Assembly (NCBI GenBank): GCA_008632985.1
Contig: QPGO01000083.1
Span: 99,075 to 163,074 of the forward strand
DNA length: 64,000 nucleotides
Direction: 5' to 3'
Source: Psammoneis japonica
Lineage: Eukaryota
The translations under genes were made by a program, and so were the position numbers. The notes beneath the pieces are model-generated. The model did no database searches and was not told the origin of the DNA. It saw only the letters and a program-made list of their open reading frames with translations. Below are positions 5,303 to 35,914 of the stretch, piece after piece; within the stretch, counting starts at the first letter, position 1; each line of letters starts with the position of its first letter.

Positions 5303-6082
5303 GATGGATGCGGTGTCAATTGAAAAAATGCGATGGCAAGTCCTTCTTTTCCCACCGTGGCTGCAACACTTGTGCCGACACGCACCACTCTGCTCTTCAT
5401 GTGCTCATGTCGTGACTCTTGTCATTTTGGTGTGCTTGCAGCTGCTCATTGAAGAGTGCATCGCCCAAATTTTCTGACCTTGCTTTCTGTTGTTGTTCTG
5501 TTCTTGTTCGACGTTCAGCAACTCGCAACGCGCAGAGATGCAATTGCCGTGTTGCTGGAATCATCGTGTCATTGAATATGCATTTCTACCTGCAAATTGT
5601 GCCGCACCACTCTGTTTTTTTGTTTTTTTTTTTTTTTTTTTTTTTTTTTCTTTTTTTTTTTTGTTCGACGTTCAGCAACTCGCAACGCGCAGAGAAATGC
5701 AGCACTTCACAATCAATTGTGTGCTGCACCAGTGAGCCCTCTCTGTTTTTTTCGGCCTTGCTTTGACTGCTTGCTCAGCATTCGTTGTTTCTCTGCTTCT
5801 GCATCACAGACCTGTTCTTTTTTGGCGTTGCTGCAGCATCACGCCAGCTGGACAGCTCTGCTGCTGTCATGGGCAAAAAAGCTTCTTTTGTGCTGTTCTG
5901 CATCCCTCCAACCTTCTTTGGTTGCTGCTCAAGATTTTTGCTTTTTCAAGATGTCCACCTCTGATCCAGCGCCAATTGCAGAGGCACCGTCAAAGGTCCA
6001 GGCTGGTGATGGCTGTTTTTTGGTGGTGGGCTGCTGGGTTTGGGTTCCGGTGTTGATTTGGCGCTGACATCAATGGACAACC

Positions 6083-7550
6083 CTGCTGTTGGAGATGTGA
6101 ATTTTTGTTTCTTGCCAAGGAAGAGGTCTGCAGTTGCAGCCTCTTTTGATCAGGTTGTGCTCCCTGTTGGGGGGGGGGACTGACATGTCTTCTGGCTCTG
6201 CTGTTGGTGATTTCCTGCCTTTTGGTGCAATGCTGTTGCTGCTCACATGGGCCATGATGTGGAGAAGGAGGCCACCAAGCCTTGGCATTCCAAGGGTTTG
6301 GCAGTGAAGTGGGCAGGAACAAAGCTTGCAGACAATGTGACGGTGGTGGGCTCTTGTTGTTGCGATCACTCTTGGCTGCTGCTTTCTGTTGTGACGAAGG
6401 ACGAAGGACCATCTTTGGATGCCCAGGGTGTCATGCATGAGTTGTGACGTGATGAATCCAAGTGCGCCAAAGCAGAGCAGATGTTCTCTGAAGATGGGTT
6501 GTTGCTTGATCATTGGAAATCATGCTCTGTGGCTCATTTTGTTTTTCCAGACTTGGACAATGACCAACGGTGCAGCACCTCTCGCACCTCCATGCCTCAC
6601 TGTCAAGTGCAGTGCTCCGAGCTTTTTTTTAAGTGATGATGTTCGAGGTGGGCGCGGCACTCCTGGATGAGCCAGCCAGCTTCAACGCACACTCCAAAGG
6701 TGAGTGTGGCATCATGTGATGATGTGATGTTGCATGATGGCACCACATGATCTGTCGCACCCTCCAACAGCGCTCTGCTCTTGTTTGCTCTTTGTTTGTT
6801 TTGCACAGACTGCTGTTGGAGATGTGAATTTTTGTTTCTTGCCAAGGAAGAGGTCTGCAGTTGCAGCCTCTTTTGATCAGGTTGTGCTCCCTGTTGGGGG
6901 AGGGGGGGACTGACATGTCTTCTGGCTCTGCTGTTGGTGATTTCCTGCCTTTTGGTGCAGTGCTGTTGCTGCTCACATGGGCCATGATGTGGAGAAGGAG
7001 GCCACCAAGCCTTGGCATTCCAAGGGTTTGGCAGCGAAGTGGGCAGGAACAAAGCTTGCAGACAATGTGACGGTGGTGGGCTCTTGTTGTTGCGATCACT
7101 CTTGGCTGCTGCTTTCTGTTATGACGAAGGACGAAGGACCCATCTTTGGATGCCCAGGGTGTCATGCATGAGTTGTGACGTGATGAATCCAAGTGCGCCA
7201 AAGCAGAGCAGATGTGCTCTGAAGACGGGTTGTTGCTTGATCATTGGAAATCATGCTCTGTGGCTCATTTTGTTTTTCCAGACTTGGACAATGACCAACG
7301 GTGCAGCACCTCTCGCACCTCCATGCCTCACTGTCAAGTGCAGTGCTCCGAGCTTTTTTTTTTAAGTGATGATGTTCGAGGTGGGCGCGGCACTCCTGGA
7401 TGAGCCAACCAGCTTCAACGCACACTCCAAAGGTGAGTGTGGCATCATGTGATGATGTGATGTTGCATGATGGCACCACATGATGACATGATCTGTCGCA
7501 CCCTCCAACAGCGCTCTGCTCTTGTTTGCTCTTTGTTTGTTTTGCACAGA
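6083..7550 (+). repeat. Tandem duplication of a ~730-bp unit (6083-6809 and 6810-7550)
   Basis: Both copies begin ctgctgttggagatgtgaatttttg and end ...tttgttttgcacaga. They are near-identical. Confidence 0.95.
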
Positions 7551-10500
7551 CTGACGTCACTCCAATGGGTTCTTGCAAGTCAACGATGACTGCTCTTTGC
7601 CAAGCGCACGGGGTTTCAAAAGATCGTGGACCTTGTTTTTGGGCTGGGAACGGCAGACACCTCCAGTCGTCACCAGGTCATGTCGCTGGGTGTTGGGTGC
7701 ACCAGCAGAAGCTGTGCGTCTCAAGCTGGCAGTGAGTGCAGCACTGCATGTCCGTTGGTTGAGCCGGGTGCTGGCCACCCTGCTGCCCAGGCTCCAAGTC
7801 TTGCAACTGCAATTTTGTTCCTGATGGTGGGTCTGCTTTTTCTCACTGAGACGAGTCCCATCCAATGGCCCAGCACTCCAATGACTTGTTTCCTGGTTGT
7901 GTCTTTGCCGCTGCTCACTTTGGTCTCACCAACAAAGACAACCCTCTTGAGACTCACACCAACAAGCACAACCCAAATTGCTTTGATCCTGTGCAGTGCA
8001 ATCATGCCATCAAACTCTTTCTTTGTCTGGAGCAGTGGCAGTCGAAGGGAAGAGGACATGCCTTGTTTGTTTGGGGTGCAGTTGCTGAAGCCTGTTTTTG
8101 GCCAAATCCAAGACCCATCTTCATCAAGGCTGCATTGGCTGTGTTTGTCAAAAGTGCATGGAGTTGGGCAAGTTCCACCATCATCTTGATCATGAAGTGT
8201 TGTCGTGTGCATGGGGTCCCCGTGTGTTGAATGTGTGCCTGGCTTTGATTGCAGAAAAGTGCCGCACAATTTTGATCCCCATGGCTGCACCACATCCACC
8301 ATCTTGCACATCTTGAAGGCCTGAAAAGCACCGAAGCTGATCCACCCAGAAAAGACAGCACTGACAAAGGCCGCGGGTTGCATCCCCAACAGCACTTGTC
8401 ATTTCTGTGCCGCCACACACTGTGTCCCACAAGAGCCATCATTGAACAAGGCCTGTCGTCATGGTGTTCATCTTGGACATCTTGTTTTGCACTTGATGGT
8501 GGCCATCGACAAGAAGATCAGGAGCTGGGTTGCCCCCAGCACCCCATTGCTGCAGCCAGCACAAGCATCTCCCAAGACTCTGATGTTCCCAGAGCATTGT
8601 GAGTCATGCGCATGCTTGTTGAAAGCATCGGTGTGCTGTCCCACCAACAAGTCCATGCCCAAATCAGCTGCGTCTGGGAAGAAAGCTTTTTCAACACTTG
8701 CTCCTGCTGTCATCAAGGAATTTGATCAAGTCAGTGACCTTGGAGCAGCGCACTTGTTGCTTGGCATTCACGGCATGGTTTGCAGCTTCCCCAAGTGTTG
8801 CATGACCAAGATCAATGCAGATGAGTGGAGACCAATCCAGCGGCTCCACGAAAAATGCAAGGTTCCCACACCCGGTTTTGCAAAAAGTGGTTTGGATGTG
8901 TGGTTGACTGTTGCCTCTCCTGCCACAGGCTTTGCATTGCTTGGGTTGACAATGAGTTGACACTCCTGTGGCGGATGACATGCGTCAACCGTTGCGTGCG
9001 CGCTTCGCTGACCCGGCCCGGGTGTGCAAAGCGGGCCAAGTGATTTGGATTCAATTTGATCAGTTTTTGTTTCAACAAACCAATGGCTTTAATTGTGGCA
9101 TTCTGTGCAACAGGTTTCCTGTTCACCAGCTTCTTTAGGTCACGGCAATGCATGTCAAGCATGGGGGTTGAGTTGCTGCTTTCATCTTCGTCTTTGTCTC
9201 AGTTGTCAGCCCAATCTGAAGTGAGCGCTTTCTGGCTCATGATTGTGCTGTCTTCATTGCTCGATGGCTCATTGTCATGTGTGGACACACGGGGCAATTG
9301 AAGCACAGTGGAAGAGGTGAGTTCTTGACTTCATCAAATGAGTCCATTGTCAAACTGTCCTCATGACAAAGCTTGCTCAACTCAGGACATTGCGAAGGCA
9401 GGGTGTGGTCATGGCACAGGCAACCCTGTGTGCAGGTCTTGCTGTGGATGCATTTTTGAAAAGATCTGCAATGTTGCTTTTGTTGGTGTTTCAATAAGGC
9501 CAACTGCCACTGCACTGACCAAGAAAGGTGCCAAACAAAAGAAAAAACTGCGTGCAAGCTTTGAAAATGTGAGTGCTCACCAGCATCATGAGAGCATTTG
9601 GCCCAAGCCTGGGACACCCAGCATTTCACCTGCTTCTGCATGCATTCTCAGCACTGTTTCTTTCCATCAATGTGATGAAGATGATGATGACAAGAGATGG
9701 TGGCACCAAAAAATGCAACCCCACACATTGCAGCCATCAAGACCAAAACAAAGCACTTTTGCCATGAAGCAAGTTTGGCACCAGTCACAAACACAAGAGC
9801 CAAAAAGAGAGGCACATTCTCTGCCTGGGTGCAAAAACTTTTCATGGCCAAAGATCCAATCCACCTGCACAAAAGACATTGGGGTTTCTTTGTTTGCTTT
9901 CACATGCTTGGCTGTTCTCCATGAGATTGGACACACCAGTGTGCCAGGTTCTGCCACTTGCTCCAGCTGGGTGCTTTCTGTGGCACCACTGTTCCAGCTT
10001 TTGAACTTCAGCAGCTTCAAATTTGGCATTCGAGCCAAACACATCATAGCCAATGGTGGCATTTGCACCAGCAGTGCTCTGCTTGCACTGCTCTGTGATG
10101 CATGCAATTTTTGGGTTGTTTTGAGATGCTGGTGACTTGGCAGAAATTGTCATCTGTTGGTGACTGTCATTCTAACTCAGTTCAGGACCTGCCGGAACCC
10201 ACTGCCTTTGGCCCTGTGACTTTTGCAGCAACCCACAACCTTGGGTCCTGCAAGTTTGCAACCTGCAACCTTGGTTCTGCAGCTCAACACCCACAGCCTT
10301 TGGGGGTCCAGCAACTTTTGCAAACCCACCTTGTTGGGTCCTGTCTGGGACTTTTACAAAGACCTGCCACCTTGGGTCCTGCCACCCACAACCCAAATGA
10401 CCCCACAGGAGGCTCAGCACTGATGTTGTGTGTTGGAAAATTGGGGTGCAAGGTGGTTTTTGCAAAACACACAGATGACATTGCAGTGGATGATTTGCTG

Positions 10501-11458
10501 ACAGCTGTCAATGACACATTTTGGCAGCCAATGATGAGATGCAGATCTTGTGCTTGCTTTTTGGCTTTTGCACCCTGGCTGCTGACATGGCAGCAACAGT
10601 GGCAACAGAAACATGTTTGCACTCCATGCCTCAAGTTTGGGGTTTGGTGAGACCAAGTGAGTGTCAGCTGGTGAGCTGCAAAATTCCAACAACAAGAGAG
10701 AGCAGCTCATCACAGACACCCACATCACAGCATGGTGAAGCTCCAATGGCCTCCCAACCAACAGAATGGTCAGCCTGCTGGCAGAGCTCAATTGCCCATC
10801 TTCTCTGAACTGAGCCACTGGAGGCAACCCATGGTGTTTGGTGCCCTGGCATTTGGCACCCTCACATTTGCCTTCTCATGTTTGATGCTGTCATGTTTTG
10901 CATGTTTGGCAACCTCATGGTTTTTGCAAATGGCATGGAAGCCTCTGTGCACACTGCCCAGAACATGGCACCATAAATTGCAAGCACTGGTTGCTGCTTC
11001 AGGTGCTTCTGCTGTCATGACAGCACTGTCCTCACTGTGTGTTGATGCCTCATTTTAATCTCTTAGAAATGCACAGATGTCTTTGCCAAGCTGATTTGTT
11101 GAGCCAAGTTTCCTCAGGTCTGTGGCTGCACACACATCCCAACAAGGGGCAAGTCAAGGGATGCACTGTGGCCACCCACCATGCTCCACTCAAAGAAGAC
11201 ATTTATCTCAATTGTGGCTGCCCATCACAACCCACCACTCAAAGACACACATCTCTGTCACCATCAAAAGGAGCCTGTCACCACTGTCACTTTTGTTTGA
11301 CCTCTCCTTCCTCTGCCTGCAGCGATGACGCAAAAATTGCCCATGGCACTGTCTCCCAAATGCAAGCAAGAGGAACCATTGCAAAGGTGTGCAGCTCCAC
11401 CCTTGCATCTGCCATTTGCCAGCAAAAGAAGGCCATGTTGTGGAAGTGGCAATGCAAG

Positions 11459-11620
11459 CAACAACGACATAAGAGATGTGGTGTGTTGGCACCTTGTTGG
11501 GGAACTCTTGCACAACAACGACGTGAGAGATGTGGTGTGTTGGCACCTTGTTGGGGAACTCTTGCACAACAACGACACAAGAGATGTGGTGTGTTGGCAC
11601 CTTGTTGGGGAACTCTTGCA
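11459..11620 (+). repeat. Three tandem copies of a 54-bp unit
   Basis: caacaacgacNNNagagatgtggtgtgttggcaccttgttggggaactcttgca x3. The only variable segment is ATA/GTG/ACA. Confidence 0.95.
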
Positions 11621-12239
11621 TTGTCAAAGTTGTGCAAAGTTGTTTCACACGTGCAGTGTCATGGTTTTTGATTCTGCACCATTGGCCGTGTTGTTTGTGC
11701 TTTGGCTGTGGATCATCTTGGATGGAGTTCTGGTCGTGCGACACACAGCCTGCATGTCGCAGGGAGATTCATTTGGGCAACCTCTCACCGGCTCAACAAG
11801 TCCCATCCCCACCTGCACGAAGTCCCCCCATGTCCATGCGCAGGGTGCATCCTGCCCAACCACCCCACAAACAGCTCCCCCAAGTGTCTGATGGAATCTT
11901 GCTTTGAAGACTCGCATCTCCAAACACTGTCAGCTCAAACCAAAGAAGAACACAAGCATCAGCCATGGACAGCTTCGGCTCATCGTTGGCAAGTTTGCAC
12001 GTGCCCCTCCCCGGTTTTGCCAAGAGAAAGCAGTGGTTCCTCATCTTTGTTTCTTTTTTTTCAGGCAGTGAGGTTGCTTGGCATTGCTGCCATTTCTGAC
12101 AGTGTTCAGGAGGCTTTGTTGCTGTTTCTGCTGCTCAACAACATGTTTGGCTTCCCGCTTCATCAAGCAACAATCTGCATCAGTTGCTCCAGAGCTCTCT
12201 TGATGGCCTCCTTGTGCAGTTTCCAAAGCTCTGCATGAT

Positions 12240-13200
12240 GCATGGCATCACAATCGGCCCCAGAAGCAATCCCTCTCAATCAAAGGTTGACCTCATGCCT
12301 TGCTGCAAGAAGAGCCAAACCGGTGCCACAATCAAGTTTTGCTCTCAGAAGTGTCCTCCCAACAACACAGGTCACCTTCTTCTTAAATGTGATGTGCAAA
12401 ACACACATGACACCCAGGGCATCCAACATCCAAAGACGGATCCTTTGCCACAACAGAAAGTTTCAGCCAAGAGCGACCGTGACAAAAAAATCAGACTTTG
12501 CTGCTGAACCCAAATTGGGGCACTGGAGTGCCAATGCTTGGCAGTCTCCTTCTCCACACTGGCAGCCTCCTTTTCAACATGGTCCACACAGGAGCAGCAA
12601 GAGAAGCAACAGCTTCTGATGCACCAAAGGCACAAAAGGAATTGCCAACAGCACAACCAGAAACACAGCAGTCTTCTTTCCAACAGGGAGCACCACCTGA
12701 TCATCAGAGACTGCAACTGCAGACCTCTTCCCAGGCAAAAAACAGAAATCCACATCTCTGGCAGCAGGGCTGTTGTCTGTCAACATGAGAACCAAATTAA
12801 CACAGGAACCCAAACCCAGCAACCCACCACCAAAACAGACATCATCTGCCTGGACCTTGGATGACACCTCTCCAATTGGTGCCAGATCAGAGGTTGACAT
12901 CTTGAAGGAGCAAAAATCTGGAGCAACAACCAAATCAGGACCAAGGGAGGCAGAATGGGATGGGCAAAGCTTGTTTGCTGCAATGGCAGCAGAACTGTCC
13001 AACTGGCAAGACATTGCTGTGATGCCAAAAAAAAAGAACTGGTCTGTGATGCACAAGCAGAGAAGCAATGAATGATCAGCAAATGGTGGCAGCAAGACTG
13101 AAAAAAAAAACACAGAGGACTTGCTGATGGAGCAAATGATTGATTGTAAAGTGCAGTGTTTTCCCTGCATCACGCATTGCTCAACGTCAAATGAGAACAG
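12240..13200 (-). repeat. Dispersed repeat: diverged inverted copy of about 5690-6430; 12240-12400 also matches about 22030-22220 in inverted orientation
   Basis: Shared translated text (MSTSDPAPIAEAPSKVQA vs MSTSDLAPIGEVSSKVQA; SKVDLMP..QKCPPNN..LLKCDVQN vs SKVDTMP..QKHPPND..LLKCDVQN) and shared nucleotide blocks. Confidence 0.8.
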
Positions 13201-16200
13201 TGTTTTGGCAATGTGCCTTCAATTGTCCACTTCACCTGTCTTTCATTCCAGCTGCAGGCAGTTTAGCCACAGGCAATCCAACCCTCATCAAACCAAGTGT
13301 GAGCTGCATCCAAAAAATGAGTGTGCTCCTGCAAAAATTGGCAACACACTGTTTTGATCCGGGAGTGGTCATGCAAGGTGCATGTGTGTGTGGAGATTTG
13401 TGTGCATGCACTGCATGTCTTGTGAGTGAACTTGTTCTTTTCTGACTCTTCCCACTTTGCCTGTTTTGTTCAAACAGCTGTTCAAGGTGGCATGGAGAAA
13501 ACAGAGGCACTCCTGGAAAAGGAGTGGGGGGAACCATTTTGGTGCAAGCACAACTGTGCAGGTGTGCAAAAGTGACAGAATTGCACTGCATGTCATTTTC
13601 ATTCTTGCCAACTCTGCCACATTCTCTCCTTCTTCTCTTGTGTGCTGAACGGAGCACACAATGAGAAGGAGAATTCCACCCAGGTTGTCACCATGCAGCA
13701 ACCACAACATCCAGAAGAAATGGACAACAAATTGCCATCAGCCCTTGCAACAATTGTTGCACAAAATGCAGTCTCTGCTTTTTTCCCTGACACTCCACAA
13801 GATCTCTGGCACCACTGTCTGTGAAACTTCCAGGCCAGAAACACAATCCTTTTGGCAGCTTTTCTTGTTGGAACAGTGCAGAGCCATCAACAGTGGTGTT
13901 TTGTTCAATGTGGAATGAGCCAACACCAAACAGATGTTTGGAAAGAGGAGGGGAAGTGGCTTGGGGTGACTTCATTTCCCATCCAACCAGTTGTTCTTCA
14001 AGCCATGGCAGAATTGTCCATTCAAAGATTGCTGGCATCAACCAAGCAGTGGCTGGGATCAAATCAATCTGCTGCCAAGCCTGGCACAAGCCTTCTCACT
14101 GAACTTTATCACATTGGAAAATGTGGGATTTTGTCCCAGACAGCCTTCTCATTTGTAAGGTGTGGTGGCAGTGGACACCTTGGAGGTGATGCAACAACAA
14201 AACTTTCTTTCATTGCCTTGCATTTTGGGATGCTTTCAGAGTTCTTGATGATGGCTGCAAATGAAAAGGCTGCATGCTTTCATCCCATTGATGTTGTGGT
14301 GCATTGCTGAGGCCAGCCAACTCAACACCTCCTCTTTGTTGGCCAGAAAGTCTCAGGGCTTGTGCAAGTCAAGAAGCAGTGTTCAAACAAAATGCAATGT
14401 GGCTGCTTTGATGATGCCATGACTGCATGGCACAGCTCTGGATCTGCAGTCACCAGAGAGATCTAGTTGACTCAGCACCTCCTCTTTTGACAGGTGTTTT
14501 GGTTGCAACAACCATTCTCATGCCTGCCTCTAAGAGCCCCAACATGGCAAAGGTCCCTCCAACAATTGCTGTTGGTGCTGAGGCAATGCATTTGCAAAGC
14601 TTGCATGACTTCAGCTTGCAGGACATGGCAATGGGACTCAGATCAATGATGGGCTCAGCTTGGAGGACAATGTCATTAGAGCAGCACAACAACTCCATTG
14701 ACTGCAACACCTGACACATGCCTTGAGACCTGCTCCAACAGCGCGACTTTGCACCCGAGCCATTCTCCATCATGGCTGTGACTGTGCAGAATTGTCAAAA
14801 TCACCCAAGCATGCTCAAAGTTGGTGGTGGCAAAATGGACACAAAATGAATGTCCAAAGGCACCATCAAATGGATGCTCATTGACAAGATGAGATCAGAG
14901 CTGTTGCATGGCATGAGCTGGCTTGGGGGTTTGTGAAGCCACTGGCTGAGAGATGCCAGCAAACACATGTCATGAAGGCAAAGATGTGGTGGTGGTGAGG
15001 ACACATTGATTTTGCTCACAACTTGGCTGCAAAAGAAAGTCCTTGCATTTTGACCTTGATGGATGATGAGCGTTGCTGGGCAGAAATGCAAGTGCCATCT
15101 CTGGCCCATTTGGCGGAAGCAACAACATTGGAAATTGAGCCTGACAGTCAAAGCTTGCATGTCCATGAGATGAGTGGCAACAAGTGTTCAGTCAAAAGTC
15201 CTTCACAAAACCACCAGTGACCAAATTGTGAGCTGCCCAGACTGAATCTGCTGAGTGCACCAAACAGAGGTTCATCCACAGACTGTGCCAGAGACTGGCG
15301 CAAGCTTCAGGGTTGACCACTTTCACAACGATCATCCAAGCACTGCTGAACCAATCTGTGTTTGGTCTGACATCTGTGCAACACCTGTGATCCTCAAAGC
15401 AACCAGCTTGAGATTCATGTCGATGTGGCGCAAAAAGAACTTCAACCAGAATTCGGACCGACAGAAGTGCAGACACACAAGAGAATTTGGGGGTCGTTGG
15501 ACAGATGATGCACAACTCTCCCTCTCATTCACAGATTCCATCAACCAACAAAGAAATCACAAATGAGAAAGCTTGCACAATTGGTGCAAGTTCAGAGCGA
15601 AGCTCTTGCATCTTGACCAAGCCACAACATGCAACAAAGTCTGCCAGCAATTTTGTCACCACCAGCGCCAGGACCGGCACTTTCTCACCGTTGAATTGGC
15701 ATCTCCTTCAAGTCTGCAAGCCCGCCATTTGAATTGATCTAGAATGCTTGTCAACTCAGTGCAGGCAGTTTCACATGAGTTTAATCTTGAGTGCTTCGTG
15801 CTGAATGCACCTTGATCCACTTTTGGGTCTCCACCCAGCTGCTCTGTCCTGGATTTTTGGGCAGAAGTCAATGTCTTCGAATGTCAACAAGCTCTTCACG
15901 CAACAGCAGGTCCTCTTTCATGAAGTAAGAGCCTTACTTTTGTCTTTTTGCGTTTCATCGGTCAATGTTTACTTCGTCTTTGATGCTGTCATCTTGGTCA
16001 TGCTCAAAGAGGAGTCGTGCGTCCAGATGTGTAAGTTTCCGCGTGTGTGCATGCACGACCGACCCCGCGCGCGTTGCGTTGTGCACCACGCTAGTAGAGC
16101 ACGCTGCGACCCCGCGCGCGTTTTTTTATCCGCGTTCATCCACGTGCATCGTTCTTGCTCCAATCAAGCATGCTTCGGTGATGCGAACACAAAACAAAAA

Positions 16201-16264
16201 AGAGCCCCTCTTTTGTCCAGCATCTCTCTCTCTCTCTCTCTCTCTAAAAGCGTTTCCCACCACG

Positions 16265-19200
16265 ATGAACCACTTCAACGACAACGAGGATGATGAAATG
16301 TGCGACAGGCATGGTGTTCGCTGCAGTGCCGGGAGCGGCGACTTGAAAGAGGACAATGAAAAGGAGAATCAACTGGAAGAAGTGCAAGAAACAATTCCGA
16401 TGGGGGAATCCGTCGCTTCTTCTCATAAGAAAAAGAAGAAGAAAAAGAAGAAGCGAAAAAGTGCTCATCACCACCGTCAAGAGCATCAGCAACCAGAGGA
16501 AGATGTGGTGGTTAACAAACAAAAACAAGAACAAGAAGAACTCGTTGCTGCGGATGATGCTGACGAGGACACCGCTGCCATGATTGCCCCAAACTCGACA
16601 TCCGATAATGCAGGTGCAGATGCTGCTGGTGCCTTTGCCATCAGTCAAGGAGGAGGGGCGGTGCGAAGAGGAAGGAATGCCGATTCCAATGTTTCACTCT
16701 TGTCAGTGCTTGAAACAAGACGTTCCAATGATTCGATGCCTGCTGCTGCCGAGGAGTCAACTCGTACGGACAATGATGCTCCACTCGTCGAAGCTCAATT
16801 GGCACCAGAAACGGAGGATGTCGTAGCGCTTCGGCAACGAGTAGATCATCTTGAAGCAGGAATTATCCAGGCACAAGTTGTGCAGGAGAATATCTCAGAG
16901 GAGCTTCATTACAAGCGCCTTCGCAAACAACACATTATTCTGGGCGCTGTAGTTTTGGCCATCGTTGCAGCGATTGTCGGGATTGCAGTTGGCGTATCTT
17001 CTGGTGGTGGCAGTGGTGGCAGCCAAAGCATCGTTGAGCCAGGCGCTACTCCGTCCACAAAAGAAGCTTCCGGATTGGTAATGAGTTTAGTTGGGATCAC
17101 TACACAGTTTGATCAAGAAGATTCTGACTTGTGGGCCACCGCCACCAAGGCATTTGTCGAGGATTATTACAATACTCGTCGCCGTGGCCTAATCGGTCTC
17201 TTGATTCGGAATTTGCAAGTGTCAAGTGTACAAGATGTCGAGACAACGCTGCAAGTTACCAACACTTTTGCGGTTCAAGATGGCAACGGTGGAGATCCCT
17301 TCCTTCAAATCATGTACAACCAAGCCATCACATACACTCTTGACAGTGGCAGCCAAGATGTTTCCATGGAAACAATGGCGACCGAGCCATTCAATACATC
17401 TGCAAAAAGGCTGGCCTATGTGACCGACCTTCAGTCGGCAGCTGAAAATGCCGGAAGCGATATTTTCGACGATTTGGTTGGTACTAGTGAAGTGTTACCA
17501 AATACAGGTAATCCAACACGGTCACCTACAAAAAATGGTTTCACTACAGAACCACCAACACAAGATCCGGCGTCGCCTCCGTCTACTCTGGGTCAAACGC
17601 TCAATCCAACAGCAGCGCCAACGAGGAACCCTACTCCTACAAACAATGTTTCTTCTACAGAACTACCAACACAAGATCCAGCGTCGCCACCGTCGACTCT
17701 GGGTCCAACTTTAACAGCAGCTCCAACAAGGAACCCTGCTCCTACAAGCAATGCTCCCGTTACAGAACTGCCAACGCAAGGTCCCGCATTGCCACTGTCA
17801 ACTCCAGGTCCAACAACCCACAATCCAACAGCGTTGCCAATGAGTAACCCTACTCCAAGTCCAACACTTAATTCATCGCCTCTTCCAACTCTGAATCCAT
17901 CCTTTCATCCAACTCTCAATCCAACTGCACTGCAAACGAGGAACCCTACTCCTTCTCCATCTCTCAATCCAACGTCATTACCTACGAGGAACCCTACTCC
18001 TTCTCCATCTCTCAATCCAACGTCATTACCAACGAGGAACCCTACTCCTCGCCCAACTCTCAAACCTGCGGCATTGCCAACGAGGAACCCTACTCTTGGT
18101 CCAACTCTCAGTGAAACGGCATTGCCAACGAGGAACCCTACGCCTCCTCCAACTCTCAAACCGACGCTCAATCCAACTCTACGCCCCACTCCAACACCGC
18201 CAGATGGGATGTGGAATCCAGTTGGTCGAGTATTGCATGGAAACGGTGCGGATGATTATTTGGGCGATTCCATCTCCTTGTCCCGCAATGGTAATGTCAT
18301 GGCTATTGAGCAGATCAAGACACTTCTTCTTTTGGTTCTGGTTATGTTGTTGTCCAACGATACAATCCAAGTACCCAACAATGGCTACAAATGGGCCAAC
18401 AATTGGTCGGACAAGCACCTGGTGACAGTTTCGGCGATTCCGTTTCGTTAAATGGCGACGGCACAATTCTTGCTGTCGGAGCGGATGAGAATGGCAGTGG
18501 TGAAGATGTTTCCGGTCGTGTACAAGCGTTTGAATTCAGCTCTGGTGGTTGGTTCCCGCTCGGAAGCGCCGTTCAAGGACAATCCGTTGGCGCTCGTTTT
18601 GGTTACGCCGTGTCACTTTCGGATGCGGGTGAAATTCTTGCTGTGGGAGCGCAAGGTGAGCACACGGCAAATGGTGAATGGACTGGATCCGTTCGATTGT
18701 TTCAGTACGACCGCGGTACATGGAATCAACTTGGACAGACACTGATTGGCCAGGCCGCTGAAGATTTGTTTGGCGCTTCTGTTTCTTTGAGTCAATCGGG
18801 AACCATTGTTGGCATTGGAGCGCGTTGGAATGATTTGGGTGGAGATCGTGCTGGTCAAGTAAAGGTGTTTGAATACAATTCCGCATCATCAAAATGGGAA
18901 CCGTTGGGCAGTCCAATCAATGGACAAGTTTATGGTGGGTCATTTGGACGTTCAGTGTCTCTTGACGACAGCGGCTTGATCATGGCTGTGGGTGCCGAAG
19001 GAAGCGAGAGAGTCTTTGTTTATGCCTACGACCGATCGACTTTTACATGGAATCAACGTGGCCAAATTCCACCCACCCAACAGCCTGGAGATGGTTTTGG
19101 TCGGTCAGTATCGTTGAATGGAAATGGAAAAGTCTTAGCTGTGGGAAGTAATTTTCATGACGTCAATGGATTGCTTGACTCAGGCCAAGTTCGAATCTTT

Positions 19201-19392
19201 CAATATGACACCACCACAAACAAATGGAAGCAAGTTGGTGATCCTTTAAGTGGTGAGGATGCAGATGATCGTTTTGGATATTCAGTGTCATTGTCGACAG
19301 ACGGAACCATCGTTGGAGTTGGTGCTCCTTGGAGGGACGTCAATGGCGATCAGTCGGGATCCGCATACGCATTCACGCTAAACAACAAGTAG
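16265..19392 (+). CDS. Single-pass membrane protein with PT-rich stalk and C-terminal FG-GAP (integrin-alpha-like) beta-propeller; 1-nt frameshift near 18308
   Basis: ATG at 16265. TM segment IILGAVVLAIVAAIVGIAVGV, PTRNPT repeats, and repeated (D)xFGxSVSLxxxGxxLAVGA motifs. Adding one G (ATT GAG -> ATT GGA G) joins the two ORFs as VMAIGADQDTSSFGSGYVVVQRY. Confidence 0.85.
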
Positions 19393-19949
19393 ATGTGTAT
19401 ATTTCGTATTTCATACCTTTGTGTCAATGCTACGAATTTGGAATGGTAGCTCTCTATAAAACGTGTAGGATTTGTCCTGGAACTTCTGTAGAATTCGATA
19501 AGGACACAATTTCCATTTTGACAAGGACAGTAGAAAGCTACGGTTCATTTTGGCACAAATTTGATAAGGACGCCCCGAGGAGGAATCCTCTTGATTCCCT
19601 CCATTCAACGAGCAACGAGCGCCGCGATGAGAAAAACAACACAACATCAACAACCATGAGGCTCAACCGATGCTCGATTTTGCCGCCGGACCTTTTCCTG
19701 CCAAAAGTGCTAATGCGTGACATGCCACATTTTCCTCTGATGAGTGTGTCAATGAAAAGAGAGGTGAGAGAAACCCAAAAAAAATGGACAAAAAACCCTT
19801 CCTTGGTTTTGCTGCCATTTTCACTCGATTCTCACTCGATTATCACAACTTGCGCAGCAACAACCAACACTCTATTTTGCCGCCGAACCTTTCCCACCAA
19901 AAATGCACAAGGCGTTTGAGCAGTGAGCAAGGCAGTGTGGAGCAGGCGG

Positions 19950-21710
19950 CATTGCCTTTGGTGGAATTGTTGACACTTCAAGGTTGTTGACATTGTGGTG
20001 TTGGCTGAACAAGCGCAAGCTTGTCCAGTCACCTTTGTTGCTTGCCGCAAGGTGGCAGCATTGGCAGCACAGTCTGCACACTCATCAGCACCATTTGTGT
20101 CTGGTGTTGAAATGGTTGCTTTTGATTGAATTGTTGGCTCATCAAGGCAGGCGGAGTTGCAGCAGCAAGGCAGTTGGCATGGGAGTCGGTGGTGCTGGAG
20201 TGGCCAGCGGGTCCCACACTCTCTTCATGTCCATTTTGCTTTTCTTCATTTGTGACTGATTCTCCATGGCTTGAGTGGAGGTGTCCATGTTCATGTTGGG
20301 TCTGGATGCAACACTGCTTTTCTTGACGGCTTTGTTGATGCCTTCCGTGGGAGTCCCAGCACACTCGTCACGGTGCCTCACACATGATGACGCAAATGAA
20401 ACAGGCAATTTTTCTCACAGGGCTTGATGTGATTGATGACCCAATTGTGCACTTTTTGTGCCACAGCCTTGCCCAATGCAGCAAGCACTTCCCATTTTTT
20501 TTAGCAGAGGGAAAACAATCACTTGCAAACTTGGTGTTGCAATTTCACATCACAAGCGGGCTTGACCCAACTGCACGCCCATTGTTGCATGAGGTGAACA
20601 ACCACCTTTTGTCTTTGCATTCTTTTAAGGTCAAGCCTGCATGGTCAAATGACTTTGTGATGAGATGCCAATGACAACGGACTGCTCAAATTGAATTCGG
20701 AGAAAATTGTCTGGCAAGGCAGAGTCGATTTGCGTGTGCTCTTGGGGGTTTCTGTCACTCCTGATGATGACATTCACCTGTTTCAGCACATTCTTGCCCA
20801 ACAAACTTGGCATCACCTCTTGAAAAATCCAGCAATGAGTCCATGTGCATTTATTTGGGAAATGAACACAAAGGATGATGAACACCTTCCTTTCAGCATT
20901 CTTGCCACAAACCAACAAAAGCGGCTGCCCCTCTTTGTTGGTGTTGTGAGTGGCATCGACAGTCACAATGTCTGGACTCCTGAGGAATTCATGCTGTTCA
21001 CAGTCAAAGCACCAAGTGGTGGTAAGGAGCAATTGCTGGCTGGGCTTTGCTTGAGAAGTTTCTTGGTTGGTGCCATCACACTTTGTTGCACCCGGCTGGC
21101 ATGGACCAAAATGCACCAATTTAGATTCAACTGCCTGCCCTGTTGCCACATTTGACTCAATGAAGCCATGCACATGTAGATCGTTTTCCACATCATCAGA
21201 TTCATCATCATCAGATTCATCCACACTGGACCTTCTGGACAAGTTGGGGACATCGTCATCAGCATCAGCACTGCAGTCATTGCCAGTGGGTTCCACATTG
21301 ACAGCAAGATCATTTCTGATCTCCAACAGCGGATGACAACTGCCTTTTGGAGGATGGCCCTTGCAATGCTTCATGAACCAAGAATTGATGGAGTGACACA
21401 AGGCTGTGAAGGACAGCAATTGATGCCTGTTGCACAAACACCTGAGCAACTTGTTGGAGGAGGAAGATGTGCTTGCAGAGACAGATGACTGCAGTCTTGA
21501 CCAAGCATGCTGCACCCAAGATTGGGCAACTGTTTCACCTGTCATGTGGTTTGTGAAACAATGAACAACTCCAGATCTGTCCACTGGGTGCTGCACTGCC
21601 AGTCTTAAAAAGGTGCTTCTTTGTCTCTTTGGAAAGCTGGGATGACAGGAACCTGGTTGCATGTTTCCCACTGCATGGGTGCACATGAGAAGTGTGGGCA
21701 CCACAATCAT
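19950..21710 (-). pseudogene. Degenerate MULE (Mutator-like) transposase
   Basis: SPDIVTVDATHNTNKEGQPLLLVCGKN..KVFIIL...WIFQEVMPSLLG...VIIRSD matches the MULE DDE core (DxTxxTN..PL). Downstream RHRDECAGTPTEGINK. Multiple disruptions; TA/CG depleted. Confidence 0.75.
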
Positions 21711-28280: not shown

Positions 28281-29324
28281 CATCAGAGTGCACGATGTCG
28301 CAATGTCTGCACACATGACAAAAATGTGTTGCCACATTGTAAAATCTACTCATCTGCACATGATGGTTTTTGTCATTCAGCCAATTGTTGATCTCCTGCT
28401 GTTCTTCATGTTTGAACACAGATGCTTTTTAATTTTTATGCTCAGCCTTTTTCACAACAACTGATGATCTTTAATGACAAGCCAAACGTTGCAATTGCAT
28501 GCAATGAAATTTTCATCATGTGAAGTGTGCACTGATCATTCAATCAACAACTGTGCTCCAATTGGCCTGTTCGTCCGCATCATCCTCTTCATTCCATGTG
28601 TCTTGTCCGCTCTCTTGCAAGAATTTCAAATGTGTGTGCCGCTGCCACGTTGGATGTTTCCTCGTCACCGTTCCAAAAAAGCCACACTGCATTTCTTGCA
28701 TTTGGGTGAACATCATCGAGAGGAAGAGGTCCCTTGAAACGCAGAATCGCATCACCGCTCCCCTCTTGACGTCGTGTCGTCTGCTTCTTTTTCTCTTTCT
28801 TCATTTTTCCCGTCCTGTTTTTCTCTTCCTTCTTCGTCTTGGCACCGCCTGTTTTCACCGTCTCCGGCGTCTTTCCATCCGAATCCTTCTTTTTCATCGA
28901 TCCTGTCGCCGTTGCCTTCATCGTGTGTCACTTTGTTTTGGATCCATGTTTCTGACTTCTCTCCATGCTGTCCCTGTTTCCGAATGTTTCTTTGTGATTG
29001 TTCGCATGCGTCACTTGAAGGCACCCATGTGTTCTTCACGTGCCTCAACGTGCACACAGAAATCCATGTTGTTTTTCAGCACATGCACCCTTTCTCCTGA
29101 TGCATGTTTTCACAACATTTTCTTCCATCAATTCTACACTCCGCATTGCCCTTTCCCGGTGCAATCTCACGCAGGATTTCTCTGGGAGAAGTCACATGCG
29201 CGTCTGGCAGGTTTTTGTGCACAAAACTCAAATCCCACCAGGCGCGCATGTGACTTCTCCCACGCACCACTCTGGCATGTTTCCACAGAAACCAGAATTT
29301 TGTGACTGACACACAACCAATCTG

Positions 29325-30314
29325 GTGAATGCAATGGCGAACCCACGACCACAACAATCAGAGCATTGGAAGAAAACCATGTCAGATGAACTCCGTCCAT
29401 CCACTGCTGAGGATTTCCATCACCGGATGATGGAGACAGTTGATGGTTTTGTTCACGCTGATGCTGCTTGTTGTTCGGAGGAACAGAGAGCAAAGGATGC
29501 AAAGGCTGCTGTGTCAAGATTGGCAGAAGCAATGGCAGAAGCCCGCAGTGCTTTGTCAAATCAAGCAACAACCACTCGCGAATTTAAGCACATCCATGTG
29601 CAGTTCATTAAGTCATCGATCAAGACACACCATTCAGACAACTACTGCATTGTTGCAGTGGAAAATCACAGCAAAGCAGAAATGAGTTTCCAATGCTTTC
29701 TTCACGGCAACGCATTTGACGCAAAAGAATTGGGGCTCCCAATCTCCATTGCGGGACATCAAAAATCAGAATGCAGGCTAAACATGCTGCACAGCTGTGA
29801 CTCGACGTTGCTTCTGAGAAGCCTCAGGGCAAATTCTGACACAGACGCCAACAGAGCAGCAGAGAGGGAGCAATCTGCGATTGACAGCATTGGCAAATCC
29901 ATCCACCGCCGTGCCGTGCCACTCCTTCGAAGGCGACATCTAACACAGCCGCAGCGCGTCCTGAAGGACACAATCACATTGCTCCACGAGGCCCTCAACA
30001 ATTTGACAAGGAAAGACGTTGCCTTGCAGTGACAGTGGCAAGCTTTGTATGATCTAAGGCCAGGCACAGATCAAATGCGGGGAGGGATGTAGACCGCGAT
30101 CCGGGCTGTGGACGAAGAAGCCATGGCAAGAGAAAGGGTCCTGCAGTTGGCATTGCAAATCGAGGCACAATTGGTGGCTGTCAACCAGCCTGACCACAGC
30201 GCCAACTTTCAGCAGGCGATTGTGGCTGCCAGGGAACATTTCATGGTGCAGGATGACCAAATGGACCGTGCAAGTGGACACTGCATAGAATCCACGAGGA
30301 AGCAATTGCTCTAA
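29325..30314 (+). pseudogene. Accessory ORF A of the Plavaka element, unknown function, two in-frame stops
   Basis: The 235-aa ORF and the in-frame 30108-30314 ORF read as one helical-looking protein interrupted by TGA and TAG. Confidence 0.5.
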
Positions 30315-30339
30315 AAATGCACACACTGTGAGTGAATGA

Positions 30340-33300
30340 CAGATTGACACGCGTGTCCCATTTTAGAAACAAATCTGACCAACACTTCCTTCTGTCCTGT
30401 GTGGCCCAAACAAACAGGGCCTTTTCTTGCGCTTCTGCTGCTCCTGGACATTCTTCATAAACCAAAACATTGTCCCCAATTGCTTTGACAGGGACAACAC
30501 GTAACTCAGGTGAGCACTGAGTCTTCTCAGGCATTGAAAGCCAGTTGTTTTGTTTGTGATCAAGCTGCCAGTGACTGACCAAGTCTGCATGCTGACACCG
30601 TTGCCTCACAGTTCTCTGGTCAGCTTGACAAGCAGTTGGATGGACAACTGCAAAAATCGATCCTGTGTCTTCCTGTTCGAAGAAACACAGCAAACGGGAG
30701 GGAAACTGTTGATCGCCCTTTCGTGTGCCAAAGGTCACATGGGCAAAGTCACACCATGGTCCTTCGCTTTTGCAATCGGGGTGCACACGGTGCGCATCCC
30801 TCCCACTTGCATTGTAAAACTCTGTCTTACAAGTCAGGTGTGCATTTTCACTGTCTTCACCAACACAATCCTCCCACTTTTCCGACATGAAGTTTGGCAA
30901 CACAGGGTGAACTTGGCAACGAGTGTGCTCACTGTTCCACTCAAACGTCACAGCGCCAATCCCTCAGTTGTAGGTGAGAGTGAACGCACTTCCTCCCAGC
31001 ATGTGATTGTCCGTCCTGACTCTTGATGATTCCTTTTTCCCAGTTGGCAAAATCCAACTGTCAGCTGAAATTGCAGCGTTGAGCCTCATTTGGTCCTCCA
31101 CACGCGACACGACCTGCTTCAGAAAACTGTCGAGGTTGCGTTGTTGTGCGGCAGATGACGGCAGCTTGAAAAAGTCTTTCAAGAGACATTCCCCCAAGCC
31201 TGCGTCAAAGTTCATCGCATGTCGGCAATGACAAAGAAACACTGGGAGATGGAGTGTTTCATGAAGCTTTTGAAGCTTCCATCCGCACCCTTCTGTTTGC
31301 GGGACGAATTGCACTGTCCGGTCAATGAGGAGACGGATTTTCTTGTTCATTTTCTGAACAGATGACTGGGAGTTGCGCTTGTGATGGGTGGATCGCCTAG
31401 CCTGTGCCATGCGTGGAAGACAAGAAGGTCCTTGAGCAATTGAATGAATTGCCGGACGCTGCAGTTGAGTCTTTTTCCCTTGCATTTTTTCTTTTTTTGG
31501 TTGTCCTCACCATCCTCAGCCTCACTCTCCTCTTTCTCATCCTCATTTTTGTCCCAGTCACCCTCTTCGGACTCCTCCAACCTTTCATCGTCAGAGTCGT
31601 CCAAGTGCTCACTAGGTTGGCAGCAACTCTCAAAGTTTGCTTTGGGCATCTTGCGATTCTCTGGAACAATGGGTTCGTCTGCGTCCTCGTCAAGGAAGCA
31701 TGACTCACATGCGTTTCGTCCCTTGCTGGTCAACAGGAGAAGGTAGAAAACAAAAGCCATTCCAGCCCAGTGGTGAGAGTTGAGGAAGGCAAGCAACGTT
31801 GCTCCTCCTTTGAAGTTTGTTCGCAAAAAGGATGCTTTGCAAGTTGACCGGTGATTGCTGAAAATCCTTTCCACCATGCTGTCCACCTCACTTGCGACCA
31901 CAGGTGTCATGCTGTCTACAAATGAATTGATTGCCCTTTTCAAGGTGCCATTTTCAAAGAGATGCATCATGTCGCTTGCTGTCACAAGGGCAACGCCGCA
32001 TGGTTGTGTGCCAAAGTCTGCCTCAAAAAGACAGTTGGCAGGCACGTTGTGTTGCTTGAGGCAATGCAAGATGCCCAACCAGTGCTTCCTTTCTTGGTCT
32101 GATCTGTTGTCGTCGTTGGCCTTAGTTTGCACTTGGTGGAGATCCAGTCCTCGGACAAACTCGCATTCAATCCATGGGTCGTCCAGTTTGTTGAAGCCAG
32201 TGAGGCAAAAACGACAGCAATGTTGACGACAGTTGTGACCTCCATGTCGTCCGACGAGACAGTCGCCGCTTTTTGCGTCTCCTATGATGAGAACGATCAG
32301 TGGGATTGCGTGGAGGTGTCGCATCTCATCCCCTCGTCGCACGTGTGTTTTCATGCCTCCTTTTCTCATGACTTCCAAAAGTGGCTCCAAAACAACACGT
32401 GAGCAAGTGTGGCAGTCTCTTGACGAGCGTCCCTTCTCCACCTTGCGATTGTTTGAGAGATTCTTTGCCGCAGATGACGACATCTTTTCCAAATCCGGGA
32501 GATGACCAATTGGTTTCCAGACACTCTTGTCCGACCATTTGTTGAAGGCAACATGCGCAGAGGTCATGATCACTGGCTCTCCGCAATGTGATCCCATCCC
32601 TTGTGTCCTGCCAGTCTTGTCGAGGTAAATGACATTGCACTCGAGAAATTGTTTCTCCAGGTCAGCCATCCATTCTTCGTAACTGCACCTGCACTACTCA
32701 CCCGCCAAAAGGCACTTGTCATCCGGTCCCTTCGCTTTGCACTTCCCAAAAGGATTGTCTGGATCGACCATGTTCTCTCTGCTGCACCACAGGTGAGGAT
32801 CGAGTGAAAACTGTTCCCAAACCTTTGTGAAATCCCATCTTGGCACTGACACTCGTTTTGGCAAACCGGTTTTGAAATTTTTGGTTTCTAGAGTGACAGG
32901 AACAGACTCGCTGGGTGGAAGAGGGAAATGCTTGGTTAAGGTGCGCATCAACTCTTTTCTCCTTGGCAGAACTGTGCCAAGCTTGATGTTGCTGCAGCAA
33001 AGGATTGACCACCGCCAACATCCAAATCGTTCATTGCCAAAAGTTCAACTCCTTGCATGCTGTGGTTTGATGAAATGGAGGACATGTCGTCCATTCCGTG
33101 CGGTGCGTCATCCGGGGAGGGGAACAAGGGGCTGCTGCGTGGATCACTCGTTGAAGATCTTGGGAATCTGCTGTGAGTTGATCGCCTCAGATGGGACTCG
33201 TCATCATCAGAGGACGAAGAGGAAGAACTGCCGCTTTCTTCGGGTGGCCCCTCTGTTGTGGCAGGAATGTCGCTTTGATCTGGGATTGGATCTTGGGTTT

Positions 33301-33450
33301 GCAACTCTTGGGCAACTGAGTGACACGTCTGCGAGCATCTCCAATGGCAGGCTGTTCACAAAAAACTTTGGCCACAACTGGGACAGAGAAGAGGGTTTCC
33401 GTCCATTGTAAATCAGACAATGTTGACAGGGCCTTCATCAAGACTCATGC
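30340..33450 (-). pseudogene. Plavaka-family transposase, frameshifted and hypermutated
   Basis: VIYLDKTG...EPVIMT...WKPIGHLPDL...RDCH..IIGDAKSGD.LVGRHG..CCRFC...DMMHLFENG...KLHETLH...NFDAGLGE.LLK.FFK.P...PWCDFAHV, spread over several ORFs. Ends approximate. Confidence 0.75.
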
Positions 33451-33858
33451 TCGTCATCCTTGTCTTGTGTATGAGAAGGGAAAAAAAGAACAACACGCAA
33501 AAAATGGCGGGAAATTGGCAAACATTACATTGTCTTCCAGATTGGGATGATTCTCACAGGCATGACATGTCTGCATTTTGATTTTTTGTCTGGCATCCAC
33601 AATGAATGTTGCACTTTTTATTTGCTGTCAAAATGCAGGACATTGTCTCCGTTGAAATGCAATGACAGCCACATCAAAAAGTGAGTTGGACTGTTCGTTG
33701 TTACACACAAATGTGTTTTCAAATTTCAATGTTGCTGACAACAATTTGTGCAATGTCACAGAGAAAAATAGAGTGCCTGGCTGTCTCAACACGACCCAAA
33801 CGACGGTTGCACTGTCGAACAGTGCCACTCCTCTCATTGTTGCTGTGAAAAGATCAAG

Positions 33859-35157
33859 ATGTTGTCTCCAGCACAACCGGCAAAAAAGAGAAAGAAAAAT
33901 GAGACCATCAAGCCAATGAGCCCGAGACTTCAGGCAGTGTTGAAGAGAACAGGTGCGCAGGCAGCGCATGGTGCATTGAAATCAGAAGTGGAGAAGGTGG
34001 CCAGAAATGATCTCTTTCCACAGGTGAAGTTTCTCAGTCCATCAGAATTGGCAAGCAATGGGAGCATCTCAATGTTTGTCAAGAAACAGATTGCTGGTGG
34101 CAACACGGACACTTCAAATTGGTCAGGAACTTGGGAGGAATGGGCAAAAAAGGCGGTAAAAAGGCAAATTGACAATCGCAGAAACACGGTGTGTTTGGCT
34201 GTTGGGGCGGAGGCAATGGCCAGCAAGCCAAGTGACCAATGTGTGTGATTGGAGAGTTGCACGCATCTCACAAGAAGATGACAGTGATGCTTTGTCTGTG
34301 TGGGCGTTGTCACTGAGGAAGAGGGAAAGGAAAAAGAAAAGAAACTCAAGGCGGCAGACAGGAGGAAAAAGAGGAAAAAGTCAAGCCGTGACAAGAATGA
34401 AGAGAATGACATCCCGTTTGTGCCGACATGGGATCCGTTTGGCCTGGACACTGTCACCAGCGGTAAACGAAGGAACAAGCAGGCATGCAAGTGGTTCTGT
34501 GATCACATCCTGCCTCAAACCAAGCAAAAGCAGGCGTGGAGCAGCACCATCAAAACTGGGAACACACAGGTCTCACAGTTGTTTACGGTCGGTGACGAAG
34601 CTTTGGCGCTGTCAGCCATGGAGAATTGTTGGCAGGTGTGGGCATGCAGGAACAAGGAGGAGGTGGTGGAAGAATTGGGTGAGGAAATGGAGCCTGAAGA
34701 AACAAGGCCTGCCCCTCAGCACATGAAGCCAAAGAAACAACGAGTGTCTTGGGGAGATGACGGAATCAATCGGTTCAACGATTCATGCAAAGAGGTGACG
34801 AAAGACAGAGACTCCAAGGAGGGCAAGGAGTTTGAAAAGTGGCATGTGGAGATCAAGAAAAGTGAGCACGAGAAGTCCGGAGAAGCAAAAAAGAAGAAAA
34901 AGAAAGCACCGACCGGTGATGCGGATGAGGTGAAGGCAATGAACAGCCCAATGGTGGAGAGCAACAGGGACGACAACAGCAACGACAATGAGCAGGAGGA
35001 AGGCGCAAAAGGCAAAACGGATGATGGAGGAGACGAGTCCGATGGAGACGAGTCCGATGATGATCACTGGCTTAGTTTAAGAGAGTTGCAGCAAGAAAAT
35101 GTGTGCACAGTTAACACAGCACTCGGTCATTGCACTGCAGACATGACAAGGGATTGA
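33859..35157 (+). pseudogene. Accessory ORF B of the Plavaka element, two exons with inferred intron 34223-34303
   Basis: VARNDLFPQVKFL...IDNRRN, then WFCDHILP...FTVGDEALAL..MENCW...WGDDGINRFN. The exons join in phase 1 if GCAAG and TGG are mutated GTAAG and TAG. True start may be further upstream. Confidence 0.6.
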
Positions 35158-35454
35158 CTCAACCGATGAAATGCTTTTCTCGTTTAAAACAATGTTTGCG
35201 AAAATTGACAAACCAAAGATTGTGTGGAAATGCAATCACGCATTGGCATGTGGCAACAAGGTGGAGGCAGATGTGGTGATGTGGGTGCAGTGAAAAACAG
35301 CATGCACAATTCTCAACAAGTTGTTGCAACATTGGTGTGGCAAACTTGCAACCAGAGGTTGGCCTTTCATCATGTGACAACAATGTTTTGCAACATTTTG
35401 GCAAATTGTCATCATGCAAATCTGCACATTTTCAACATTTCGTGCACTCTGATG

Positions 35455-35750
35455 CTCGCCTCACCTTTTGTGCTCTTGTCCTCCGCTGATTTCAGTTGGC
35501 ACCAACTCACAACTGATCACTTTGGCTTCTCTTGCCACTCCTCCACTCCTTCTCAATGAGCCGCTCAAACTCTTGGCTGCAACATTGTCCATCACTCATC
35601 CGCCCACGCTCTCCACTTCCTTTCCAACCTTTGCACTGATGCATCTCCCATCCCTTCTTCGAAATGCCCTTTGCACTGTCTCACGTGCCCCTTCTTTGCA
35701 CCCGCCCCTGAGGCTCTGCAGCTCTCCACCGTGCCCACTCCCGGCTTGGG
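35455..35750 (+). pseudogene. 3' remainder of the non-LTR element split by the Plavaka insertion
   Basis: ASPFVLLSSADFSWHQLTTDHFGFSCHSSTPSQ* continues the 28280 frame once the CT duplication is removed. Confidence 0.6.
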
Positions 35751-35914
35751 AGGTCTGCAAAATTGGTGCGGGAAGAAGAGGAAGAGAAAGAGCTCCGTGC
35801 CGGCCCATCCTCTTGCTGCTTTCCATTCCTTTTGCTGATTTTGCTCTTTGACTTTCTACTTAAAATAAAAAGCCGCCGCGCCGGCCGGCCACACTGTAAA
35901 AAAAAGCACGGCGC

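Follow-up and report, generated by a model that had tools for sequence, protein, structure and literature searches.

Three head-to-tail 54-bp units in the diatom Psammoneis japonica carry TA, TG and CA, respectively, at the same dinucleotide. With a probability of roughly three in four, these units are a local triplication in a dead diatom DNA transposon, and the differences between them are likely three A:T>G:C changes made by a TA-directed mutator. As far as the preprint describing it goes, this process is of a kind described once before, in Bigelowiella natans, and the new, testable part is the footprint of additional hits that accompany the TA hits (side hits). The array is a small but real snapshot, consisting of three events that are little proof by themselves.

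Array, host transposon and surrounding sequence

The array lies in a 64,000-nucleotide stretch of contig QPGO01000083.1, hereafter the window, at positions 11459-11620. Fifty-one of the 54 unit columns were invariant. The variable columns were unit positions 11-13, which read ATA, GTG and ACA in units 1, 2 and 3; the dinucleotides at 11470-71, 11524-25 and 11578-79 were TA, TG and CA, each preceded by CA, CG and CA, respectively. All differences between units were transitions, and the probability that three variable columns among 54 would be adjacent by chance was 0.002. The features of the array and its setting were as follows.

11459..11512, plus strand: unit 1, triplet ATA at 11469-11471, probably the state that was triplicated
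11513..11566, plus strand: unit 2, triplet GTG at 11523-11525, probably two top-strand A>G changes (TA>TG and the A two bases upstream)
11567..11620, plus strand: unit 3, triplet ACA at 11577-11579, probably a single bottom-strand A>G change (TA>CA)
11465..11466 (also 11519-20 and 11573-74), no strand: control CG at unit positions 7-8, kept in all three units
11211..11510, plus strand: fragment of a dispersed DNA transposon with long terminal inverted repeats (TIRs), 81-83% identical to eight copies elsewhere and corresponding to the 5' portion of the transposase-like ORF in the copy on contig C62
11618..11702, plus strand: the same transposon, resumed past an internal deletion that is common to the copy on contig C2
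6001..16000, no strand: TA-erased domain of nested mobile-element relics that includes the array, with a TA observed/expected ratio (o/e) of 0.00-0.07 per kb
28500..35460, minus strand: second TA-erased multi-copy element with a weak Plavaka transposase match under the Pfam cut-off; it is separate from the array and provided the reference rates and side-hit counts

The sequence-only reading had described three otherwise identical units that differ as TA, TG and CA, and this description agreed with both the sequence and the short-read contigs of run X1. In X1, each variant was backed by its own separate contig with 0 conflicting letters, and the depth at units 1, 2 and 3 was 81, 74 and 51, compared with 61-63 in the flanks. 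This check covered 8 of 31 contig pieces, and runs X2 and X3 contributed none; the contig carrying ATA extended into the unique left flank, and the order of units 2 and 3 is that given by the assembly. Because X1 is possibly the same sample as the window, it excludes consensus error and is no independent biological support. An assembly or polishing artefact, in which collapsed-repeat or two-allele reads were mixed into three apparent variants, would find some encouragement in the 52 substitution places and many 1-2 nt deletions by which the assembly departs from X1 over 17 kb, marking it as imperfect or as derived from a different culture, but the three separate contigs, free of differences and at about flank depth, make it highly improbable.

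These deletions and substitutions were found by comparing the assembly with X1 at 7600-24900. Among the 40 substitution places that were listed (2 were dropped as paralogue reads), 30 of 31 transitions fell at TA, TG, CA or CG steps, or 28 of 29 after removal of a pair beside an indel; about 49% of bases are in such steps. The decayed state was carried by the assembly at 22 listed places and by X1 at 6. Two explanations fit these differences, decay still in progress between cultures or alleles and miscalling of modified bases in the long reads; the differences were compared without an outgroup and were left out of the evidence on direction.

In the wider window, the interval 7600-15900 contained 22 TA, 97 CG, 980 CA and 922 TG. 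TA was also nearly absent across most of 20-43 kb and 53-60 kb, and the genes at 45-53 kb were spared (TA o/e 0.41-0.68). At 36-42 kb, TA was erased with CG near normal (o/e 0.77-0.91), indicating that TA loss and CG loss are separable. The element at 36001-42000 (35908-42102) has 189-bp direct repeats at its ends (35908/41914), about 60% GC and close copies elsewhere. A 730-bp tandem duplication with 97% identity was found at 6083-7553, inside a larger element with 600-bp inverted arms (5664-6244 and 12601-13191); its copies differ by 3 transitions at TA/CG-type steps, by 2 transitions elsewhere and by a single transversion, and these numbers are too small for a further test of the process. 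The spared region includes, on the minus strand, an FAA hydrolase-SDR fusion gene (50243-52051) that is conserved across diatoms, with its best named relatives in Nitzschia inconspicua (71%) and Pseudo-nitzschia (69%), and a SAD/SRA-domain gene with a TFIIS-like bundle (45538-46656).

Genome searches recovered at least 19 further copies of the unit segment in the same genome, each with a single unit. The site read CATGA in 18 of 19 of these copies and TGTGA in the remaining one, a distant TA-erased copy. The sister copy on contig C2, which has the downstream deletion in common with the window copy, read CATG, and in the C62 copy, which shows no TA depletion, the ATG of the site is an in-frame Met codon. 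On the evidence of the other copies, the C2 sister and this Met codon, the TA of the array is a gain on the lineage of the window copy. Pattern matches on C321 and C149 had no family match and were excluded from the 19; the similarity of C295 and C26 was confined to sequence downstream of the unit.

The C62 copy (L142:1573-6858) is a near-intact 5.3-kb long-TIR element with convergent ORFs and an odd architecture. Its inverted arms are 352 nt long and 80% identical, and the same terminal 8-mers occur in several copies. Residues 290-510 of its 529-aa ORF scored 0.94 to DDE_Tnp_4/HTH_Tnp_4 clusters (atlas features), and Pfam gave no such hit at E values up to 1. By eye, no clear target-site duplication was seen in the flanks of C62-type element copies. 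The element of the array was read as a probable cut-and-paste DNA transposon and is a candidate member of the PIF/Harbinger-ISL2EU group; a transposon of this type would make an RNA step unnecessary to explain the changes in its copies. The minus strand of the C62 element also holds a 784-aa ORF with a Cys/His motif and, by eye, an apparent transposase C-terminal part, and a minus-strand ORF with an XPG_N nuclease domain lies near its right end. Folding of the units on both strands, and of one family copy, gave z values of -1.6 to +0.1, and the candidate hairpin at the site was rejected as not significant.

Direction, strand and side hits of TA loss

The direction of change was read from a transposon copy on contig C242 compared with three sisters over 2.2 kb. 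Of its 76 TA, 31 had become TG and 29 CA, and 16 were kept. Over the same length, CG was lost at 3 of 81 sites, other transitions numbered 7 of 982, and the 338 CA/TG dinucleotides showed one CG gain and 0 TA gains. AA>AG occurred at 6 of 326 positions, compared with 1 of 656 for GA, AG and GG. The strands of the hits were interspersed along the copy (runs test, P = 0.18).

A second family, represented in the window at 28.5-33 kb, gave the same picture. Its 12 copies (L157-L168) have a transversion divergence of 0.2-1.3%, and their TA columns contained 562 TG, 598 CA and 205 TA, so that 1160 of 1365 TA were lost; another count gave 680 TG to 713 CA. Singleton transitions at other non-CpG bases amounted to 0.2-0.8%. 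Strands were interspersed in all 12 copies (runs test, P = 0.16-0.83), and agreement between copies was near independence (median 0.55). TA survival depended on the flanks, with a kept fraction of 0.32-0.51 in YTAR vs 0.00-0.03 in RTAY. Away from hot columns, AA>AG was found at 49 of 7712 positions (0.6%), whereas 85% of TA was lost. Outside TA, A>G was twofold commoner before T (48/4617 vs 85/17427, P = 6e-5), and this ApT excess, considered as a sign of a second target, is partly the side hit at -2 described below.

No strand-coordinated runs were detected along the C242 copy or the 12 copies of the second family, and the strand link was local, within 3 nt. A top-strand bias in copy C15a (14 TG vs 3 CA) disappeared with outgroups and was a polarity artefact, and a MULE-like family was set aside as too diverged (69-83% for most matches). 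Transposon copies differed widely in the degree of TA erasure; in C242:68000-77900 (L061), past about position 4500, zero TA and zero CG remained over 5 kb, which may be extreme erasure or masked sequence. CG decay was strong in other copies of the array family, with 19 of 30 CG changed to TG/CA in C33 and 18 of 33 in C10.

If unit 1 has the ancestral state, unit 2 holds two same-strand A>G changes two bases apart; therefore, we tested whether the process makes such doublets recurrently. Adenines outside TA that lie up to 3 nt from a TA hit were scored on the same and on the opposite strand, and compared with those beside kept TA and those with no TA near. All side-hit rates were measured in the second family, not in the family of the array. 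In the discovery set, 28 of 1146 adenines had changed on the same strand and 2 of 1133 on the opposite strand, with 0 of 532 beside kept TA and a background of 104 of 19319; a count of 28 was reached in 0 of 500 permutations. In the second half of the reference element (18 copies), the preset singleton filter revealed no enrichment (10/1232 same vs 10/1382 opposite strand; permutation 32/500). When up to 3 changed copies were allowed per column, a filter picked after the singleton result was known, this half gave 26/1320 vs 13/1444 (P = 0.023; permutation 2/500). Held-out copies at the columns of the discovery set gave 24/741 on the same vs 7/706 on the opposite strand (P = 0.003), in 19 vs 7 distinct columns, where some of the 24 events recur at one column in two copies and may be inherited. 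The held-out set leaves out L196, a near-identical twin of L195, and the pooled count also leaves out L206. Thus, local same-strand clustering was clear in two of the three sets and weak in one.

Pooling of the three sets with the singleton filter gave same-strand changes at 61 of 3010 adenines and opposite-strand changes at 18 of 3084, compared with 0 of 1251 beside kept TA and 287 of 46569 with no TA near. The two strands differed at P = 6e-7, and the same-strand rate was about 3 times the background. Among 3262 TA hits, the excess amounts to about 42 side hits (1.3%). Side hits were found at all offsets from -3 to +3, with peaks at +1 (22/530) and -2 (17/790). In the CATA context of the array, the pooled counts were 12/288 on the same strand, 2/253 on the opposite strand and 0/15 beside kept TA, and the doublet of unit 2, CATA>CGTG, was seen directly in several copies of the second family, including that of the window. 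Neither transversions (35/14985 near hits vs 206/86993, pooled) nor non-CpG G>A changes were enriched beside TA hits.

History of the three units

The family ancestor is ATG. Every history requires one slow TA gain and one G gain in unit 2, and the histories differ in timing. We compared them with a model of our own, in which the two dinucleotides were treated as four-state chains starting from the family state on four tree shapes, and in which the control CG and the positions without variation were also taken into account. Rates were taken from the second family, and the priors on tree shape and timing were assumed. With no side-hit term, the posterior for the state at duplication was 0.34-0.96 for ATA, 0.01-0.64 for ATG and 0.01-0.32 for GTA. 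With a side-hit probability of 0.018-0.028, it was 0.79-0.99 for ATA, 0.20 or less for ATG and 0.03 or less for GTA.

In the history that we favor, the window copy would have gained a TA by an ordinary G>A change (ATG>ATA) after its split from the sister copy, and the unit would then have been triplicated while it read ATA. Unit 3 would have been struck on the bottom strand (ATA>ACA), and unit 2 on the top strand together with a side hit at -2 (CATA>CGTG), with unit 1 still unhit. An ATA ancestor combined with a side hit in unit 2 makes CpG decay unnecessary.

The sequence-only reading had instead proposed ACGTAAG as the ancestor. Under this proposal, a top-strand hit removed the TA of unit 2, a bottom-strand hit that of unit 3, and methyl-CpG decay the CG of units 1 and 3. 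Every step after the duplication would then belong to a fast class, CpG decay is real in the family (C33 and C10, above), and the window copy retains CG at three other places where its relatives alternate between TG and CA. Against this stand two slow gains before the duplication (CA>CG and TG>TA), both of which must have survived and neither of which was found in the 19 other copies, as well as the CG four bases upstream, which is kept in all three units. The polarizing comparison with other genomic copies, which the sequence-only reading had suggested, returned 18 CATGA and one TGTGA, and thus ATG rather than GTA as the family state; 0 of 19 copies had TA or CG at the second dinucleotide and 0 of 19 had CG at the first. 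In the model, GTA had a posterior of at most 0.03 when the side-hit term was included and of 0.01-0.32 when it was not, and the corresponding probabilities of a CpG loss at the site were 0.05 or less and up to 0.21. Both the ACGTAAG ancestor and the role given to CpG decay were therefore unsupported, and we regard this history as very unlikely. For the CG of unit 2, a newly made A>G side hit is a better explanation than a CpG that was present in the ancestor and then lost on two occasions.

A third history leaves the unit at ATG when it was duplicated. One lineage gained G (GTG) and another gained TA (ATA); copying or conversion then carried this TA to the far unit, where it took a single hit (ACA), and only one mutator strand would have been captured. 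With 3 changes it is the most parsimonious history relative to the outgroup, and it leads at 0.56-0.64 if the side-hit effect is absent and units 1 and 3 are given a one-in-three prior as sisters. However, two slow gains would have had to occur independently, two bases from each other and within a short time in which the 51 other columns did not change, and units that are not neighbours would have to be sisters. The posterior of this history was 0.00-0.20 once the measured side-hit rate was applied, and we consider it unlikely.

With ATA as the triplicated state, several claims of the sequence-only reading held up. The site probably read TA at the time of the triplication, and TG and CA would be the two products of that TA (ATA at 0.79-0.99 with the side-hit term); the title of the sequence-only reading, which spoke of the ancestor and both products, is right for the array only and does not extend to the family, where TA is a gain from ATG. 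Mutation continued after the duplication, as at least one subsequent TA loss had a probability of 0.97 or more in every model setting. The claim that the mutator acts on chromosomal DNA and on both strands was also borne out, with hits on both strands at a probability of 0.79-0.99 if side hits are modelled and of 0.34-0.99 if they are not, although the TG and CA counts within other transposon copies are a better basis for the both-strand claim than the array.

Candidate chemistry and relation to known systems

The side-hit footprint is a mechanistic fingerprint: single-strand events a few bases wide, with A>G on both sides of TA and no excess of transversions. One event would open or mark a few bases on one strand. 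A TadA/ADAT-type adenine deaminase would probably act on the opened bases, and the inosine would be copied as G. Adenine deamination is favored by the enrichment of A>G alone on both sides of the target and by the like footprint of TadA-derived editors; judged from these sequence patterns, we put it at about even odds as the chemistry. Nine PF00383 matches were found in the genome, by appearance an ordinary eukaryote-like inventory. They include what we take from motifs to be one TadA-like locus and one ADAT2-like locus, both of which any eukaryote would be expected to have. No deaminase fused to a chromatin reader was found among the nine (four ORFs were scanned in Pfam), and no candidate was singled out. 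A single ORF on contig C79 (L190:313-1785) combines a deaminase-fold domain with a 2OG-Fe(II) oxygenase (DIOX_N) and is probably a small-molecule enzyme.

The same history could also possibly have come about through other chemistry, either short-patch synthesis by a Y-family polymerase of the eta or iota type, or damage to thymine, for example an oxidised T pairing with G. Polymerase eta has a WA bias and polymerase iota a bias for G opposite T. Short same-strand clusters match a repair patch, and AA>AG was raised in the C242 copy (6/326, above), but an AA>AG rate of 0.6% against 85% of TA lost is far narrower than a WA signature, no excess of transversions or of non-CpG G>A accompanied the hits, and side hits fell on both sides of the target. 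A patch of the polymerase-eta type thus fits the data less well. These points leave a T lesion untouched, since an A>G change reads as T>C on the complementary strand, and an A lesion and an opposite-strand T lesion would predict identical sequence data.

In Bigelowiella natans, TpA>TpG/CpA hypermutation of integrated NCLDV and virophage DNA has been reported (Mettrop et al., bioRxiv 10.64898/2026.01.13.699255). According to this preprint, rates came from mutation-accumulation lines, were raised about 1000-fold per generation and were so in some lines only; an ADAT-type deaminase was proposed, and the process was suggested to reach transposons. Compared with that account, the process in P. japonica is similar in that A:T>G:C transitions are nearly confined to TpA (60/76 TA changed in C242 and 1160/1365 in the second family), in that both TpG and CpA arise according to strand (31:29 and 562:598), and in its limitation to foreign or mobile DNA with host genes spared (o/e 0.00-0.07 vs 0.41-0.68). 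In contrast to the viral inserts of Bigelowiella, the targets here are TIR-bounded cut-and-paste transposon relics of a diatom, and TA is erased far more deeply (o/e below 0.1, compared with 0.45 in the NCLDV region), with CpG decay alongside; the process here is deduced from copies only, whereas the preprint measured rates in lines. Same-strand side hits occur here, whereas the preprint places all A>G/T>C on TpA; the rate found here predicts about 3 side hits for its 230 changes, so that zero there does not separate the two systems. The main text of Mettrop et al. makes no mention of neighbouring hits (the words 'diatom', 'adjacent', 'tandem' and 'bystander' are absent), and its supplementary mutation lists may bear on side hits. 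Our literature search, mostly of openly accessible work, found no report of TpA loss in diatoms and no description of the side-hit footprint.

Repeat-induced point mutation (RIP) of ascomycetes changes C to T, mostly as CpA>TpA, and creates TA. The process here resembles RIP as a dinucleotide-specific hypermutation of repeats in chromosomal DNA; unlike RIP, it removes TA, with 0 TA gains among 338 CA/TG in C242, and its strands are interspersed within copies. Diatom transposons are reported to carry DNMT5-dependent CG methylation (PMC9998398). Methylation of this type would account for the CG>TG/CA decay in older copies but cannot yield TA>TG/CA; C242 lost 60/76 TA but 3/81 CG, and such methylation is not needed for the array. 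TadA-derived adenine base editors are described as making off-target A>G/T>C variants with a TA preference and bystander A edits (PMC13225742). The process here is like them in placing A>G/T>C at TA together with bystander adenines in a short window of one strand, a likeness in footprint only, as these editors are engineered and guided.

We tentatively propose that diatoms may possess a natural adenine base editor directed at silent mobile DNA, in which a TadA/ADAT-type deaminase would act on about six bases of one strand opened at TpA and edit the target A and occasionally a neighbouring A. Unit 2 would be one such double edit, preserved beside an unedited copy and one edited on the opposite strand. 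The side-hit pattern narrows the candidates and may help to identify the mutator enzyme. New TAs that arise in old transposon relics are likely still removed, and a DNA adenine deaminase, if this is true, would be a natural counterpart of the engineered adenine base editors.
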